Below the pieces are notes generated by a model. It was not told where the DNA came from. It searched no databases and saw only the letters and a list, made by a program, of their open reading frames with translations. The position numbers and the translations under genes are program-made. From a virus (Duplodnaviria; Heunggongvirae; Uroviricota; Caudoviricetes), in IMG/VR virus record IMGVR_UViG_2579778633_000005, positions 1-21,861 of that record: 21,861 nt of DNA. One strand, written 5' to 3'. Below are positions 12,906 to 20,138 of this stretch, piece by piece (positions within the stretch are counted from its first letter, which is position 1; every line of letters begins with the position of its first letter).

Positions 12906-13337
12906 TCAGTCAGATGTAAACACGTCATATTTATTACCCTGTCCTACAGGAAAATCTCCACGTCGTCGCATTGAAGGAACAACCAGAGTGTCGGTCATCA
13001 AGGCATCATATGAGCGTTGGGCGTTACTGAGAACTTGCGGAGTTGGTTCAAGGCTGTAATCAGATAGCATTCTCAGCAATAACTGATAGCCTACTGCGTG
13101 TTTGTATTTTCTTGGAAGACCTGACTCATCATCTGGTAATGGCTGATCATCTCCAGTTGCGAAAGCGTAACCAATGTCGCCGGGGTTAATCATCCACTCG
13201 GACATCATATCTTCCAGATCATTTACACCATCTTCAATTGATTGCGGCTCAACATCAGTCAGCGATGCATTAGAAGCAATAGCAAACTTACGAAGCGCAA
13301 AAAGGACGATCTCACCCTTTGTCAGTACTGTTGCCAT
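12906..13337 (-). CDS. Tail accessory / head completion protein, P22 gp4 family (143 aa)
   Basis: N-terminus [48 protein letters not shown] aligns with P22 gp4 as I recall it ([32 protein letters not shown]...). Confidence 0.75.
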   Translation of the reverse strand: [143 protein letters not shown]

Positions 13338-13497
13338 TGTCTGCCGCCTTACGACCTCGCTTACTGGTCGGTTTCAATTCATCAACTGAGGCAACAAAGC
13401 CCAACCTTTCGAAAAACTGGAAGTCTTTTTCTGCGATAACGGCCTGTACATGCCCGGATTCGTTATCTGCGGCAAGGAATACACTCATCCGATCCAT
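13312..13497 (-). CDS. Small hypothetical protein (61 aa) between the coat and gp4 genes
   Basis: ORF begins 8 nt after the post-coat terminator and overlaps the gp4 start by 26 nt. Called on position only; P22-like phages such as Sf6 carry a small gene between coat and the gp4 homologue. Confidence 0.35.
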   Translation of the reverse strand: MDRMSVFLAADNESGHVQAVIAEKDFQFFERLGFVASVDELKPTSKRGRKAADNGNSTDKG

Positions 13498-13504
13498 ATT
13501 GTTT

Positions 13505-13534
13505 CCTTAAAACATAAAAGGGGCGTAAGCCCCT
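13505..13534 (-). terminator. Intrinsic terminator-like hairpin after the coat remnant
   Basis: Stem AGGGGC / GCCCCT with loop GTAA at 13519-13534, followed on the minus strand by TTTATGTTTT; begins 5 nt after the coat ORF stop. Confidence 0.5.
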
Positions 13535-13539
13535 TGTTA

Positions 13540-14106
13540 TTACGGATTACCGAAGAACTGACCGCCCATGTGAGGGTTAAAGCACACATATGCAGGCAGT
13601 AAGTCGAAGCGCATTTTTTGCACGTTGGCATCGCCATCTGCGTATTTATGTACGCGGATGGAGAAACCTTCATATGTTGCAACAGCAGAATCAATACTGT
13701 GCAGTTTCGGCAGTGGGATAGAGCCAAGTCCACAGAAGAACTTGTTATAGAACAGGTTTGGCTTCATTGTCTGGCTAGCAGTGCCTACTACAGATACGTC
13801 ATCGCCTGCATCTACCTGACGACTTACAGAGTTGTACTGCGGGTTTGTAGTGTCATAAATCGGAACACCAGAAAGCGTAACCGTCACATCGCCACCGCTG
13901 TCTGAATCAGCATCAGCAGTAACCGTTGCAGTGAAGCTAATTGGTGTGGCTCCGTTATACAACGCCTGTTTGGTCTGCTGTTGCAGCCAGTAGGTATTGG
14001 TGAATTTGACCTGATCACCAGCTTTCAGAAAACCTGTAACGCTGGCTTTCGCTCCGGTCAATGTTACAGTGAACTGGTACGGGGATTCATTCGGGCCAGC
14101 GCCCAT
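13540..14106 (-). pseudogene. Probable 3' remnant of the major coat protein gene (188-codon ORF), N-terminal part deleted
   Basis: Occupies the coat position just before the gp4 block but is less than half the ~425 aa of P22-like coat proteins. Its 5' end overlaps the 3' end of the truncated terS reading frame. Identity as coat is inferred from position, not from recognised sequence. Confidence 0.45.
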
Positions 14107-14405
14107 TTGCGGGTATCAACGCGAAGTCTTGCCTTTGCCACCTCGGCGGCATCTGGAATCGCAGTGTCAGCAATTTCGAATATCTCTTCGAAAATAGAAT
14201 CAGCTCGTGCCTCAGTTGCCTTCGCGTACTTGTCGCGAAAATCCTCATGCTTTGCCAACCAGCGGAAAACAGTGGACTTATCCGGCATACCAGGACGCTT
14301 ACATACTTTCAGCAAACTTTCGCCAGAAGAAAGCAACGAGCAGATATCGTCAGCCACCTCCGGCATATAATCAGAGGGGCGACCAGCTTTTGGTTCAGTC
14401 GCCAT
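14064..14405 (-). pseudogene. 5' remnant of small terminase subunit gene (113-codon ORF; frame lost after ...ARMNPR)
   Basis: MATEPKAGRPSDYMPEVADDICSLLSSGESLLKVCKRPGMPDKSTVFRWLAKHEDFRDKY... matches my recollection of the Sf6-type small terminase (~140 aa). The ORF ends early and is followed directly by a coat-like 3' segment; no terL, portal or scaffold genes are present. Confidence 0.5.
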
Positions 14406-14852: not shown

Positions 14853-15356
14853 TGTTGGCTCCGTTTATCCGTTAAAAGGGATATCAGTTAAGTTATCCCG
14901 TGTAGGGTATAAGCCATTGTCGAGACCACTCATTGAATGGCCTCTGCAATAACCGATGTCTTTCCATCAGTCCGCCACCACAAAGAATCTTTTTTGCCAT
15001 AAGGCTGGAGGTTCATCTTTCAGTGGCTGCCAGTGTTATTTCCCCACTTACTGGCTTGGGTTGCTTCGTGGTACTGCCGTAACTGGTGGTGCACAGATTT
15101 AGTTAAATCCGTTCTCGCATAATCCAGCTTTACATACCTGGATTGTGAGGGATGTAAATCACGGTTTCATTATCAAGCCCACCCGTAGATAGGCTTTGTA
15201 ATGACTGGCTCTTATCTCAACGCAGCCCCTTACCGCGCGCCAGATGCTCAACTTCAAGCATCAGCAATGAGATGTTTAATCTGGATTCACTCCAGAAGTG
15301 ATCACCACCCTGTCTACAGAGACAGATGTGAAGGATGATGAGTAAAATTATCGCTA

Positions 15357-15794
15357 TCATCGAAGGCATTGCGTCCTGATGTACTCCTGCAGGTAGTTAA
15401 CCTGCGCGGTTATCTTGTCGATTCCACTTCGGAGACGGTAATAATTGAGTTCAGCATCTGCTGTAAGTCTTGGGCTTTCTCCATCGCCCATGCTGCTGGC
15501 TCCGGCCGTTGACTTTGCACAGGTGGCGGCGACTTGCAGGCGCTTACGACCAGCAGAAACATCAGCACGGAGGCTTTCGATAGTCTCGTTAGCATCAGCA
15601 AGCTCCTTTGTGTATCTGGCGTCGAGTTCCGCTACATCACGTTGACGCTTCTGCATGTCAGCGATTGTGGATGCGGCCTTATCGCGCTGCTCTTTGTAGA
15701 TCATGGCGTTATCACGGTAATGATTAACAGCCCATGACAGGCAGACGATGATGCAGATAACCAGAGCGGAGATAATCGCGGTGACTCTGCTCAT
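15357..15794 (-). CDS. Rz: Spanin, inner-membrane subunit Rz (145 aa)
   Basis: [30 protein letters not shown]... matches the lambda Rz N-terminus; start overlaps the endolysin stop by 4 nt as in lambda. Confidence 0.85.
15410..15601 (-). CDS. Rz1: Spanin, outer-membrane lipoprotein subunit Rz1 (63 aa), embedded in the +1 frame of Rz
   Basis: Out-of-frame ORF wholly inside Rz; signal peptide with lipobox LVVSAC followed by a Pro-rich stretch ([16 protein letters not shown]), the classic Rz1 architecture. Confidence 0.7.
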
Positions 15795-16267
15795 ACCTCA
15801 ATCTCTCTGACCGTTCCGCCTGCTTCTTTGAATTTTGCAATCAGGCTGTCAGCCTTATGCTCGAACTGACCATAACCAGCCCCCGGAAGTGAAGCCCAGA
15901 TATTGCTGCAACGGTCGATAGCCTGACGGATATCACCGCGATCAATCATCGGCAAAGCGCCACGCTCTTTAATCTGTTGCAATGCCACAGCGTCCTGGCT
16001 TTTCGGAGAGAAGTCTTTCAGGCCAAGCTGCTTGCGGTAGGCATCCCACCAACGGGAAAGAAGCTGGTAACGTCCGGCTGCTGTTGATTTGAGTTTTGGG
16101 TTTAGCGTGACAAGTTTGCGAGGGTGATCGGAGTAATCAGTGAATAGCTCTCCGCCAACAATGACGTCATAACCATGATTTCTTGTTTTCTGACGTCCGT
16201 TATCAGTTCCCTCTGACCACGCCAGCATATCGAGGAACGCCTTACGTTGATTATTGATTTCCACCAT
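15791..16267 (-). CDS. R: Endolysin, lambda R-type lytic transglycosylase (158 aa)
   Basis: [62 protein letters not shown]... is essentially identical to lambda R as I recall it. Confidence 0.9.
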
Positions 16268-16574
16268 CTTCTACTCCGGCTTTTTTAGCAGCGAAGCGTT
16301 TGATAAGCGAACCAATCGAGTCAGTACCGATGTAGCCGATGAACACGCTCGTTATATAAGCGAGATTGCTACTTAGTCCGGCGAAGTCGAGAAGGTCACG
16401 AATGAACCAGGCGATAATGGCGCACATCGTTGCGTCGATTACTGTTTTTGTAAACGCACCGCCATTATATCTGCCGCGAAGGTACGCCATTGCAAACGCA
16501 AGGATTGCCCCGATGCCTTGTTCCTTTGCCGCGAGAATGGCGGCTAACAGGTCATGTTTTTCTGGCATCTTCAT
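16251..16574 (-). CDS. S: Class I holin, lambda S-type (107 aa) with dual-start motif Met1-Lys2-Met3
   Basis: [69 protein letters not shown]... is essentially identical to lambda S; 17-nt overlap with R as in lambda. Confidence 0.9.
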
Positions 16575-16801
16575 GTCTTACCCCCAATAAGGGGATTTGC
16601 TCTATTTAATTAGGAATAAGGTCGATTACTGATAGAACAAATCCAGGCTACATTTTGCGGTAACGCTGTTTGCTCGTCACAGTTTTCGCGAGGAGACCAT
16701 TAGGGATACTGTTTGCGCAGTATCCATATCAATCGCATTTAACGACCATTAATGGATGCACTCATAAATGCATCCTGTAATGGGAGCTCTTAATTAATTA
16801 G

Positions 16802-17323
16802 TTAATAAATAACCCATGTCTTATAGTTAAGAATTCCTGCAATTGTTGCTTTTGATACGCCGTACATTCTCGCCATTTCACGCTGTGACATTGATTTGCA
16901 CGCACGTATTTCTTTCACTTGCTCAGTAGTGAGTTTTGCACAATAGTGACGCTCACCACTGATTGGGTTTAGCAATCCTGACTTGCTTGCATGGACCATA
17001 TTCTGGCAGCCAGTAACCCACTCAAGATTATCTACTCTGTTGTCAGACTTGATTCCATTTATGTGGTTTACCTGCGGAAGCGAGTTTGGATTATCAATGA
17101 ATGCAGCCGCCACTAACCTGTGAATGTAATGTTTTTTAAGTGCTCCTTTGTCGCGGAGATTTACATACAAGTAACCATCACTATGATTAACAGGCTTAAG
17201 CCATCTGCCCTTCTGTAACCTTCCACGAGCATCAACTCTCGAATGAGAATAAACGCGGCCATCAGTAGTTACGGAGTATTTACCTTCATATCCTGCGATA
17301 TCTTTCGCTGTTTCGCTTAGCAT
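16802..17323 (-). CDS. HNH homing endonuclease (NUMOD4 + HNH_3 + C-terminal HTH; 173 aa)
   Basis: NUMOD4-like GYEGKYSVTTDGRVYS; HNH_3-like HRLVAAAFIDNPNSLPQVNHINGIKSDNRVDNLEWVT; C-terminal HTH-like ...SQREMARMYGVSKATIAGILNYKTW. RBS AAGGAG upstream. Inserted between lambda-like pR'/tR' sequence and lambda-like sequence upstream of S. Confidence 0.75.
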   Translation of the reverse strand: MLSETAKDIAGYEGKYSVTTDGRVYSHSRVDARGRLQKGRWLKPVNHSDGYLYVNLRDKGALKKHYIHRLVAAAFIDNPNSLPQVNHINGIKSDNRVDNLEWVTGCQNMVHASKSGLLNPISGERHYCAKLTTEQVKEIRACKSMSQREMARMYGVSKATIAGILNYKTWVIY

Positions 17324-17511
17324 AAGCTACTCCTTGTATTTATTTTTAATCGACAACAACTTCTTGCCACCCACTTTCACGAAGCCAGCCATTGCGCTGG
17401 TTTTCTTTTATGCAAAGCACACCGCACCGTAGCCACAGCGGATAAGGTGATTATTTTTGTCTGTCTGGTATTTGGTTTGATGTGCTTTCAGAAAGGTCGT
17501 GATTAAAACGC

Positions 17512-17542
17512 AAAAAGCCCCGAGCTATTAACTCAGGGCTTT
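17512..17542 (-). terminator. tR'-like intrinsic terminator downstream of pR'
   Basis: Minus-strand RNA AAAGCCCTGAG-TTAATAGCT-CGGGGCTTTTTGCGTTTT: GC-rich stem followed by T-runs, roughly 30-60 nt downstream of the predicted pR' start. Confidence 0.5.
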
Positions 17543-17568
17543 ATTTAACGAGTGCATTTATCCATCGT

Positions 17569-17604
17569 TGAGTCAAATTTACCCAACTTTATTCAAAAAG
17601 TCAA
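17569..17604 (-). promoter_or_regulatory. Late promoter pR' with overlapping qut region (lambda-like)
   Basis: Minus-strand TTGACT-TTTTGAATAAAGTTGGG-TAAATT-TGACTCAACGATGG closely matches lambda pR'/qut (TTGACTTATTGAATAAAATTGGGTAAATTTGACTCAACGATGG) as I recall it; lies downstream of Q. Confidence 0.65.
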
Positions 17605-17646
17605 TATTATGCCGTTAATATGTTGCCATCCGTGGCAATCATGCTG

Positions 17647-18270
17647 CTAACGTGTGACCGCGTTCAAAATGTTGTCTGCGATTGACTCTTCCTTGTGGCA
17701 TTGCACCACCAGAGCGTCATACAGCGGCTTAACAGTGCGTGACCAGGTGGGTTGGGTAAGGTTTGGGATTAGCATCGTCACAGCGCGATATGCTGCGCTT
17801 GCTGGCATCCTTGAATAGCCGACACCTTTGCATCTTCCGCATTCTTTCTCAACAACTCTCCCCCACTGCTCTGTTTTTGCTATATCAACCGCACGGCCTG
17901 TACCGTGGCAATCTCTGCATCTTGCGCCCGGCGTCGCGGCACTACGGCAATAATCCGCATAAGCGAATGTTGCGAGCACTTGCAGTACCTTTGCCTTAGT
18001 ATTTCCTTCAAGCTTTGCCACACCACGGTATTTCCCCGATACCTTGTGTGCAAATTGCATCAGATAGTTGATAGCCTTTTGTTTGTCGTTCTGGCTGAGT
18101 TCATGCTTACCGCAGAATGCAGCCATACCGAATCCGGCTTGTGATTGCGCCATCCCCATAGCAGCCATCACATCAGTACCGGAAAGAGAGTCAGAAGCCG
18201 TGGCCCGTGGTGAGTCGCTCATCATCGGGCTTTTTGGCGAATGAAATTTAGCTACGCTTTCGAGTCTCAT
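17647..18270 (-). CDS. Q: Late gene antiterminator Q, lambda type (207 aa)
   Basis: MRLESVAKFHSPKSPMMSDSPRATASDSLSGTDVMAAMGMAQSQAGFGMAAFCGKHELSQNDKQKAINYLMQF... is essentially identical to lambda Q as I recall it, including the Cys-rich zinc-binding segment. Confidence 0.9.
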   Translation of the reverse strand: MRLESVAKFHSPKSPMMSDSPRATASDSLSGTDVMAAMGMAQSQAGFGMAAFCGKHELSQNDKQKAINYLMQFAHKVSGKYRGVAKLEGNTKAKVLQVLATFAYADYCRSAATPGARCRDCHGTGRAVDIAKTEQWGRVVEKECGRCKGVGYSRMPASAAYRAVTMLIPNLTQPTWSRTVKPLYDALVVQCHKEESIADNILNAVTR

Positions 18271-19101: not shown

Positions 19102-19271
19102 TAAGCAGCCTCCCCTGTTACTTTCAGCATTCCGTTATCGAGCAGCTTTCTGGTCAGCCACTGTTGACCACGTCCGGTGATTTTTGTGGTGAACGATATC
19201 TGTATTCCGTGATTTGTGTTGGATAAGCTGTAGTGATCGAATGCCGGAAGACACCAAAATGTTACTGGCAT
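19101..19271 (-). CDS. Possible NinE-like small ORF (56 aa), possibly truncated at the nin/early-left junction
   Basis: Hand-translated MPVTFWCLPAFDHYSLSNTNHGIQISFTTKITGRGQQWLTRKLLDNGMLKVTGEAA; its stop overlaps the ybcO-like start (TAATG). Its first ~19 codons overlap the opposite-strand DUF551 ORF, so the start is uncertain. Confidence 0.25.
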   Translation of the reverse strand: MPVTFWCLPAFDHYSLSNTNHGIQISFTTKITGRGQQWLTRKLLDNGMLKVTGEAA

Positions 19272-19417
19272 TTAGTCAAGGTGAAATCGTGGCCGCATAT
19301 TGGAACTGGGTTGTAAATCCAATTGATTACAAAAAATATAGAGCTTTCACGTATTTATCAGGAAATATCTTGGATGACGTAACTCACTGGATGCCGCTAC
19401 CAGAGCCTCCACTTTGA
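19214..19417 (+). CDS. DUF551 domain protein (67 aa; TTG start at 19214 or ATG at 19241)
   Basis: Contains both DUF551 signature segments, WISCSDRMPEDTK and WMPLPEPP. Opposite strand to the nin genes, co-oriented with torI. Confidence 0.55.
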   Translation: MCWISCSDRMPEDTKMLLAFSQGEIVAAYWNWVVNPIDYKKYRAFTYLSGNILDDVTHWMPLPEPPL

Positions 19418-19513
19418 AAGCGAAGCTTATACATATCTTTTACATCAGCAATCTATTGTTAATCTCCAATCAATGTTACGTTGTCATCTCACTCATGCTT
19501 TGGAGGTAGTGAT

Positions 19514-19693
19514 ATGTCTTGTCCAAAATGCGGTTCTGGAAATATTGCAAAAGAAAAAACAATGCGTGGATGGTCTGGTGATTATGTGTGCTGCGATTGC
19601 GGATACAACGACTCTAAAGACGCATTTGGAGAGCGTGGTAAAAACGAGTTTGTCAAAATTAATAAAGATCGCGAAGGCAACGGAAAAAGCTAA
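19514..19693 (+). CDS. Small zinc-ribbon protein (59 aa)
   Basis: MSCPKCGSGN...CCDCGYN has two CxxC pairs; RBS GGAGG 7 nt upstream of ATG 19514. The track ORF at 19481 begins with TTG and lacks an RBS. Confidence 0.5.
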   Translation: MSCPKCGSGNIAKEKTMRGWSGDYVCCDCGYNDSKDAFGERGKNEFVKINKDREGNGKS

Positions 19694-19758: not shown

Positions 19759-19782
19759 GCCGCCTGATGGCGGTTTTTTATT
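19759..19782 (+). terminator. Intrinsic terminator after the zinc-ribbon gene
   Basis: Stem CCGCC / GGCGG with loop TGAT, followed by TTTTTTATT. Confidence 0.5.
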
Positions 19783-19793
19783 GGAGACAAGAA

Positions 19794-20138
19794 ATGTCAG
19801 ATTTGGCTATGAAGGTTTTGAAATGGCAATCGACTGGCGATGTTGGCATCAGTAGCGCAACTCTTGCCTCAATCGCATGTGGACTGAAAAAGAATATCTA
19901 TGGTCATAGCTTCGGTGCTCCACATGACGCAGCAGACTTTCGGCGATGCGTTGCACTTGTTGAGCAGATTCCAGAAATCAGAGATTCATTCGACAAGGTT
20001 GCAAAGCGCGTTCCGGCATTCAAAGGAATCCTCAACGAATGGGATTCACTCGTTGCTCTGTTGAAGTCTGAAATGAAGACGTACGGGAACAAAGCACCAG
20101 AGACTTACAGAAGAATCAGCGAGCTACGCAAGGATTAA
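19794..20138 (+). CDS. Hypothetical protein (114 aa)
   Basis: Start chosen at ATG 19794, with GGAG 7 nt upstream; the track's ATG at 19767 lies inside the terminator hairpin. No recognised motif. Confidence 0.45.
   Translation: MSDLAMKVLKWQSTGDVGISSATLASIACGLKKNIYGHSFGAPHDAADFRRCVALVEQIPEIRDSFDKVAKRVPAFKGILNEWDSLVALLKSEMKTYGNKAPETYRRISELRKD

Follow-up and report, generated by a model that had tools for sequence, protein, structure and literature searches.

The DNA analysed here, referred to as the window, is a 21,861-nucleotide (nt) stretch of a Caudoviricetes virus (IMG/VR record IMGVR_UViG_2579778633_000005, positions 1 to 21,861). Between its late antiterminator gene Q and its holin gene S lies a gene for an HNH endonuclease, which is the subject of this analysis. 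The span 16575-17646, to which a sequence-only reading of the window had drawn attention, coincides exactly with the intergenic leader between Q and S; it lies on the minus strand, as do all genes of the late region (Q, the HNH open reading frame (ORF), S, R and Rz). The gene belongs to a cassette that interrupts the leader and contains a 35-nt leader of its own with a ribosome-binding site (RBS), the HNH ORF, a first hairpin and a new 5' arm for a second hairpin. The cassette and the sequence linked to it comprise the following features:

16802-17323, minus strand: ORF of an I-HmuI-like HNH endonuclease, 173 amino acids (aa) (Pfam, PHROG, PADLOC, PDB match and AlphaFold model)
17330-17335, minus strand: Shine-Dalgarno sequence AAGGAG, 6 nt ahead of the ATG (read from the sequence)
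16722-17358, minus strand: inserted cassette of ~637 base pairs (bp), with junctions ambiguous by 1-4 nt (alignment with empty relatives)
16746-16783, minus strand: hairpin 1, 6 bp, a 2x2 internal loop and 7 bp (13 bp in all; RNAalifold)
16704-16725, minus strand: hairpin 2, GGATACTG-cgcaaa-CAGTATCC (alignment and RNAalifold)
16668-16721, minus strand: cassette-linked variant of the native leader, 54 nt (gap-free alignment)

The HNH protein is composed of an N-terminal NUMOD4 domain (residues 7-57; Pfam 9.1e-12, 45.5 bits against a cut-off of 23.4), an HNH_3 domain (residues 65-109; 1.3e-8, 34.8 bits against a cut-off of 24.8) and a three-helix helix-turn-helix (HTH) at residues ~133-165, where the match to HTH_3 (2.4e-4) lies slightly under the Pfam cut-off. 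A 173-aa NUMOD4/HNH_3 gene with its own RBS had been proposed from the letters of the window; both domains, and with them the HNH motif, are supported above the Pfam cut-offs by the profile search, and AAGGAG stands 6 nt from the ATG. The ORF is also matched by PHROG 59 ('HNH endonuclease', 6.4e-58) and by the PADLOC model 'homing endonuclease' (HEase, 2.5e-21). A sequence search of the PDB revealed I-HmuI (1U3E), from the DNA polymerase intron of Bacillus phage SPO1, as the sole match (7e-11). An AlphaFold (AF2) model built on 47 homologues reached a predicted local distance difference test score (pLDDT) of 91.5 and displayed strands in the NUMOD4 region (residues 6-66) and C-terminal helices at residues 133-141, 147-154 and 158-165. 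The fold predicted by this model matches only I-HmuI: a Foldseek search against the PDB returned 1u3e_M as the only significant match, with an alignment spanning the full protein (E = 3.5e-8, 178 columns, template modelling (TM) score 0.56). The identity as a homing endonuclease, suggested earlier, is thus supported by the only significant solved-structure match, obtained by sequence as well as by predicted fold.

Comparison with I-HmuI showed near-equal lengths (173 aa here and 174 aa in I-HmuI) and a shared three-part plan of an N-terminal beta-sheet NUMOD4 region, a beta-beta-alpha-metal HNH/N motif and a C-terminal HTH. The general-base histidine (H) and the asparagine (N) residues of I-HmuI align with the HNH protein, with H75, N87 and N96 of I-HmuI corresponding to H87, N99 and N108. 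These three residues, as well as N86 and H111, are invariant among the 47 homologues. The position of the I-HmuI metal ligand aspartate (D) 74 is occupied by N86 in the HNH protein, and by N throughout the family. The two proteins differ in sequence, with an identity of merely ~27-30%, and in setting, as I-HmuI is intron-encoded whereas the HNH gene described here is free-standing in a non-coding leader.

The HNH ORF is under purifying selection, the pairwise ratios of nonsynonymous to synonymous substitution rates (dN/dS) within the clade ranging from 0.19 to 0.41. The C-terminal domain diverges faster than the catalytic part, that is the N-terminal two thirds (51-62% versus 71-76% identity). 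A natural chimera, P0004 (locus L013, 3001-3519), is joined at around residue 104; its residues 1-104 are 97% identical to the protein of the window, and residues 105-172 are 100% identical to the type found in Salmonella phage ST-35. Recombination thus took place where the catalytic part meets the C-terminal DNA-binding domain.

The leader into which the cassette is inserted, and the late genes around it, are made up of the following elements:

17647-18270, minus strand: Q, late antiterminator of the lambda-Q type, 207 aa (Pfam Antiterm, 1.3e-57)
17604-17576, minus strand: pR'-like late promoter TTGACT-17-TAAATT with qut region (promoter scan)
17505-17542, minus strand: tR'-like intrinsic terminator, 13-bp stem (17542-17514) and T run (terminator scan)
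17359-17504, minus strand: left homology arm, native late leader of the HK97/HK140 type (alignments)
16575-16667, minus strand: right homology arm, native leader (alignment and RNAalifold helices 4-5)
16251-16574, minus strand: holin S of the lambda S type, 107 aa (Pfam Phage_holin_3_1, 2.4e-30)
15791-16267, minus strand: R
15357-15794, minus strand: Rz

In phage N7 and in E. coli prophages, Q bears the annotation antitermination protein Q. The pR'/qut region aligns with the annotated pR'/qut of HK140 and epsilon34, and the alignments showed that the tR'-like terminator is kept in both empty and occupied relatives. The sequence-only reading had placed pR'/qut upstream of the gene and lambda-like sequence on both sides of it. 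The scans revealed the pR'-like promoter together with the tR'-like terminator, and both of the strings it had quoted were found as reverse complements, at 17367-17386 and 16620-16651. At its end the left arm carries the box GGCTTCGTGAAAGTGGGTGGCAAGAAGT (17359-17386), and this box forms the native hairpin's 5' arm. The right arm holds the stem GAGCAAAC...GGATTTGTTC (16635-16675), the box GTAGCCTGGATTTGTTC (16635-16651) and an sdi-type hairpin ahead of S (16581-16594).

Alignments with HK140, HK97, lambda and epsilon34 revealed that the cassette is missing from these phages and that all native bases are retained at the insertion; the length difference (1501 versus 862 bp) is consistent with an insertion of ~637 bp. 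It falls between GGCAAGAG and ACTGCGC, within the 5' arm of the native leader hairpin. The lambda counterpart of the interrupted hairpin is GGCAGGAGGT-cgcgctaaca-ACCTCCTGCC (lambda 45031-45060), and the insertion point is equivalent to lambda 45038/45039. The left flank, from the Q stop to GGCA, is 97.5% identical to HK140, and the right flank, from GTAGCC to the S ATG, is 98.8% identical. The boundaries of the gene are insertion-like, and the earlier view that the gene replaces the lambda spacer has to be revised, as the locus displays instead a clean insertion of ~637 bp plus a diverged stretch of 54 nt.

Across all alleles that carry the HNH gene, this 54-nt segment showed 74-100% identity; its identity was 61-69% with epsilon34 and 43-54% with lambda and HK140, in each case in gap-free alignment. 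It is invariably co-inherited with the HNH gene, and the flanks beyond it are 98-100% identical to the local background. Judged from these patterns, the segment could be a co-conversion tract or a cleavage-resistant variant of the target. The interrupted hairpin and the linked 54-nt variant together are a candidate basis for resistance of the occupied allele.

The cassette brings ~80 nt of its own non-coding 3' tail with two hairpins. The hairpin GGATGCA-8-TGCATCC, which had been noted behind the stop codon of the gene, is present at 16754-16775 and represents the top of the longer stem of hairpin 1 (16746-16783). Hairpin 1 was found in HNH-carrying phages only, and two of its pairs show compensatory changes, from A-U to G-C and from C-G to U-A or U-G (RNAalifold helix 1). 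In hairpin 2 the insert supplies most of the 5' arm, and the diverged native leader supplies the loop and the 3' arm. This second hairpin lies in ungapped register with epsilon34 (ACTGCGCtAACAG...) and shows compensatory changes at three pairs; in it the native leader hairpin (lambda 45031-45060) is rebuilt.

The sense-strand RNA of 16575-16804 has a minimum free energy (MFE) z-score of -4.5 versus shuffles of the same sequence. A comparison of 8 distinct tails showed 98% of cells paired, versus <=45% with slid partners, and both sides changed in 6 pairs; several of the G-U pairs are possible on the late-sense strand alone. The covariation rests on these 8 tails, as a profile search of genome contigs with the clade alignment gave no more of them and detected a single distant Cloacimonadota locus only. 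An Rfam search of 16400-17800 with a permissive E-value revealed matches at chance level only, and the tail is not a known RNA family. The folding and pairing of the tails point to a structure at the RNA level in the late transcript, with moderate support given that the related sequences are few (8).

The native late leader (lambda 45010-45130, corresponding to L004 1211-1331 and to window 16575-16700) looks highly structured as well. TTCGTGA and TCACGAA form a possible long-range pairing that encloses the lambda 45031-45060 hairpin, and it is followed by a GAACAAATC/GGATTTGTTC stem and then by the sdi hairpin before S.

The cassette is sporadically distributed. About 190 phage records share the Q-S leader, and the HNH gene with its 3' tail was found in only three of these: N7, whose Q-S region is 99.2% identical to the window, and the Salmonella phages ST-35 (81% DNA identity) and 29485 (63% aa identity). 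All others are empty, among them HK140, HK97, HK022, the mEp phages, lambda and epsilon34. Of 5,426 complete E. coli genomes, 6 carry the cassette, always in a prophage Q-S leader, and 1,076 (~20%) have the uninterrupted site. The gene is thus far from ubiquitous, both in E. coli genomes and in phage records.

The same cassette is found in unlike flanks. In the IMG/VR loci L017-L019 the ORF is 98% identical in DNA to that of the window, whereas the flanks are of the epsilon34 type and 65% identical; the breakpoints lie within ~10 nt of the left edge of the cassette and, on the right side, at GAGCAAAC. Relatives with at least 62% identity were all located between a late antiterminator and a holin, at a constant distance of 223-227 nt from the stop to the holin gene, and they adjoin at least four antiterminator types and at least three holin types. 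The clade with 63% identity is very common in Salmonella. Relatives with 56% identity or less reside instead in the Rz-terminase or O-primase gaps of lambdoid phages. Such a one-to-one mapping of clades onto insertion sites is the signature of site-specific enzymes. Decayed copies were also detected. L040 (2009-2527) and L041 (2501-3019) are Salmonella-type copies which carry E101*, caused by a single G-to-T change in the catalytic NLEW motif, and are otherwise intact; truncated clusters exist with P0010 and P0020.

Phage UPF_BP1 (L060, 1090-1506) shares its 203-aa Q-like gene and its 90-aa holin with L009 (2723-3742) and the HNH-bearing Salmonella loci, and has a leader without lambda-type homology. 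The late leader is thus an exchangeable mosaic module between tR' and the holin RBS. The association of the HNH gene with many Q and holin types had been considered as proof of repeated homing; this argument was tempered, since UPF_BP1 shows that the leader itself is mosaic.

Further nuclease genes were observed in related loci. In L006, a prophage whose HNH cassette is identical, a GIY-YIG nuclease (22355-22840) encoded between Rz and the DUF2560 gene represents a further gene of the homing type; the matching gap of the window (14853-15356) is ~570 nt shorter and has no such ORF. L014 (1407-3000) contains a 375-aa ORF in which HNH_3 is combined with a Q-like antiterminator region; the same locus has an insertion of two tRNA-like genes between tR' and the leader. 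L013 encodes a 188-aa HNH_3 ORF (742-1308) between ninB and ninG.

A sigma-70 promoter scan of the coding strand detected pR' only and no promoter for the cassette, whose 35-nt leader is devoid of a plausible -35/-10 pair. The terminator scan found no terminator at the hairpins 16746-16783 and 16704-16725, both of which lack T runs. The Shine-Dalgarno sequence AAGGAG is kept in all copies of the cassette. Co-expression with the late genes is plausible, given that the scan revealed no separate promoter for the HNH gene and that it lies downstream of pR'/tR' in late orientation.

The gene had been placed in a moron slot, at the site where Stx phages carry their toxin genes. The first term holds insofar as the cassette is extra DNA between genes that are adjacent in relatives; a classical moron (in the sense of Hendrix/Juhala) was rejected, since the scans detected no promoter and no terminator belonging to the cassette. 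The second comparison holds for gene order: stx of 933W occupies the same slot, from the late antiterminator and pR' to the holin, and is expressed via Q read-through. It fails at the nucleotide level, where an identity of the two sites was rejected because the Q-stx-S region of 933W shares no homology with the leader. In the annotation of 933W, this region comes with separate promoters, with tRNA genes and with terminators, in contrast to the HNH cassette with neither promoter nor terminator; moreover, stx encodes a host-directed factor and the HNH cassette a nuclease.

We consider it likely that the gene represents a promoterless, free-standing and late-expressed homing endonuclease cassette of the I-HmuI type (NUMOD4/HNH_3/C-terminal HTH) in the lambdoid late leader. 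In a lysogen, transcripts from pR' would halt at tR' and the nuclease would be silent. After induction or infection, Q-modified RNA polymerase would pass tR' to reach the HNH gene and S, and the HNH ORF, as part of the late polycistronic mRNA, would be translated by means of its own RBS, AAGGAG. The enzyme would grip a long asymmetric DNA site via its N-terminal beta-sheet domain and its C-terminal HTH, and the beta-beta-alpha-metal site (N86, H87, N99, N108) would nick or cut the DNA. The cut would probably fall at or beside the insertion point, in the uninterrupted leader of another lambdoid phage or prophage in the same cell. Repair templated by the occupied allele, via the conserved leader arms of ~150 nt and ~90 nt and the flanking Q and S genes, would copy the cassette and the adjacent 54-nt variant into the empty genome. 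The structured 3' tail would restore the interrupted leader hairpin, by which the fold of the downstream late mRNA and of the S leader would be retained.

Searches of phage records also revealed proteins ~41-43% identical to the HNH protein, which we take to be the free-standing I-HmuI-like F-Tfl enzymes of T5-like phage. In lactococcal Skunavirus phages, I-HmuI-like enzymes have been studied experimentally; each clade corresponds to one site, C-termini are variable, and truncated copies and marker exclusion are known (PMC12724721). These free-standing enzymes share with the clade described here the variable presence, the tie of cluster to location, the C-terminal variability and the frequent truncated copies. 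Skunavirus and T5-like phages are virulent and carry the genes mostly in replication modules, whereas our clade belongs to temperate lambdoid phages, resides in an untranslated late leader and is predicted to rely on Q antitermination for expression.

A second comparison is offered by the seg and mob genes of T4, many of which are promoterless and use upstream promoters (PMC2988022). They are likewise intergenic cassettes that depend on transcription of the host operon, and co-conversion of flanking DNA and marker exclusion are among their features (PMC2988022). They differ in domain make-up (GIY-YIG, or HNH joined to DNA-binding domains of other kinds) and usually cut within conserved genes next to them, whereas both flanks of the cassette described here are non-coding structured leader.

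Several observations weigh against an active homing cassette. In E. coli, occupancy amounts to ~0.5% of the available sites, and a strongly driving element should exceed this value, although prophages seldom meet in mixed lytic growth. Late expression leaves scant time for repair before packaging. The 54-nt segment is no more diverged than the empty leaders of lambda and epsilon34 are from each other (65%) and need not be a resistant target, and its interpretation as a cleavage-resistant variant was downgraded on this ground. With the leader being mosaic, as in UPF_BP1, the many Q and holin associations can arise by ordinary recombination. The metal-ligand position D74 of I-HmuI is an N, and yet the site is probably functional, since this residue is found family-wide. 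A literature search turned up no cleavage, target or inheritance data for the protein or its close relatives.

A wider form of the homing interpretation would see in these proteins a clade of I-HmuI-like endonucleases specialised on the lambdoid late leader, a short stretch that all late transcripts have to traverse. Cutting would then silence the late genes of rivals and drive co-conversion of the adjacent lysis cassette, and the 3' tail, as a functional element that restores the interrupted hairpin, would spare the carrier the regulatory cost. We regard this extension as tentative and unlikely.

The conserved boxes of the leader could also have carried the gene along without any involvement of the endonuclease. 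In this explanation a single insertion into one leader lineage was later moved by homologous or Rad52-type recombination at GGCTTCGTGAA..., at ...ACGAGCAAAC/GGATTTGTTC, at tR' and at the S RBS, and the gene is a passive passenger of mosaic exchange. The leader itself is mosaic and found with differing Q and holin genes, the breakpoints fall at conserved boxes, the right breakpoint varies by event (GTAGCC in the window versus GAGCAAAC in L017), and occupancy is low. Temperate phages and defective prophages are known to recombine with each other in a relaxed manner (PMC3945230). A functionless gene should decay, however, yet purifying selection and an intact catalytic motif were observed in 47 homologues, and the clades map one-to-one onto insertion sites. 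We consider a mere passenger to be unlikely.

The promoter pR' is the single entry point for all late transcription. A nuclease which cuts rival lambdoid genomes just past this promoter (marker exclusion), or which processes or recombines the replicating DNA of its own phage, could have been retained for the benefit of the phage, with the spread of the gene being secondary. The leader bearing the target is present in ~20% of E. coli genomes (1,076/5,426), and the ORF is under purifying selection. Expressed I-HmuI-like enzymes exclude markers of Skunavirus sk1 (PMC12724721), and T2 marker exclusion is explained by the T4 seg/mob enzymes (PMC2988022). The rarity of the gene in E. coli speaks against a large advantage, and nonsense alleles persist. 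A benefit of this kind overlaps with homing, so that the two readings are not exclusive, and the present data do not separate them; as the primary reason for retention it seems rather unlikely to us.

The position of the gene inside a highly structured regulatory leader, and the presence of a C-terminal HTH, would also suit a domesticated DNA- or RNA-binding regulator which acts on the late leader via its HTH and beta-sheet domains, tunes holin or late expression and has little or no role as a nuclease. I-TevI, for example, doubles as a repressor, as is generally known and discussed in PMC2988022. However, the catalytic residues of the HNH protein are invariant, most relatives sharing the leader lack the gene and lyse normally, and sister clades reside in unrelated intergenic sites, all of which makes a regulator very improbable. 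A terminase-associated packaging HNH of the HK97 gp74 type, suggested by the place of the gene in the late operon and by the general occurrence of HNH proteins in phage packaging machines, is effectively refuted, as the Pfam family differs (NUMOD4/HNH_3), BLASTP against gp74 gave E = 5.3, the gene lies between Q and S and not beside the terminase (of which a small-subunit remnant is found at 14064-14405), the carriers are P22-like headful packagers and nearly all close relatives lack the gene.

The element carrying the HNH gene is a defective E. coli P22-like prophage. A truncated ORF of the Sf6-type small terminase (14064-14405, minus strand) runs into the ORF 13540-14106 (within window 12906-14405), and the latter represents only the C-terminal part of a P22-type coat protein (profile positions 250-423). 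The large terminase, the portal, the scaffold and the N-terminal part of the coat protein are missing, and the terminase/coat junction was not found in one piece in any complete E. coli genome. A tRNA-Arg(CCT) gene (1009-1083) adjoins a tyrosine integrase gene (1209-2399). The attachment site is of the argW/intS/yfdC type and is shared with the P22-like prophage of E. coli SWYH.B349aT, in which torI is also present, at the far end. The ORFs 19214-19417, 19481-19693 and 19767-20138 on the plus strand sit within the otherwise minus-strand nin region, and a 123-aa ORF among them has no Pfam match.

The gene as such is already annotated though uncharacterised, and its family is well understood and very large, with 2,819 phage records; GenBank and RefSeq list the product as an HNH/NUMOD4 protein (RefSeq WP_000947860.1, 'NUMOD4 domain-containing protein'). 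Our literature search revealed nothing specific on this gene, on the HNH gene of phage N7 or on homing endonucleases in the lambdoid Q-S leader. The literature searched does not describe a clade tied to this site of the lambdoid late leader, the precise position of the insertion within the leader hairpin or a 3' tail that restores the structure.

If active, the enzyme would represent a documented homing endonuclease that works among temperate lambdoid phages and prophages in E. coli and Salmonella, beside the lysis genes and in a gene-order slot where other phages keep toxin genes. Sharp mosaic joints around the Q-S region could in part be due to such an enzyme, which would also be a natural sequence-specific nickase or cutter whose target occurs in roughly a fifth of E. 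coli genomes. The conserved pairing of the tail further illustrates how the RNA fold of a regulatory leader can outlast the insertion of a cassette.

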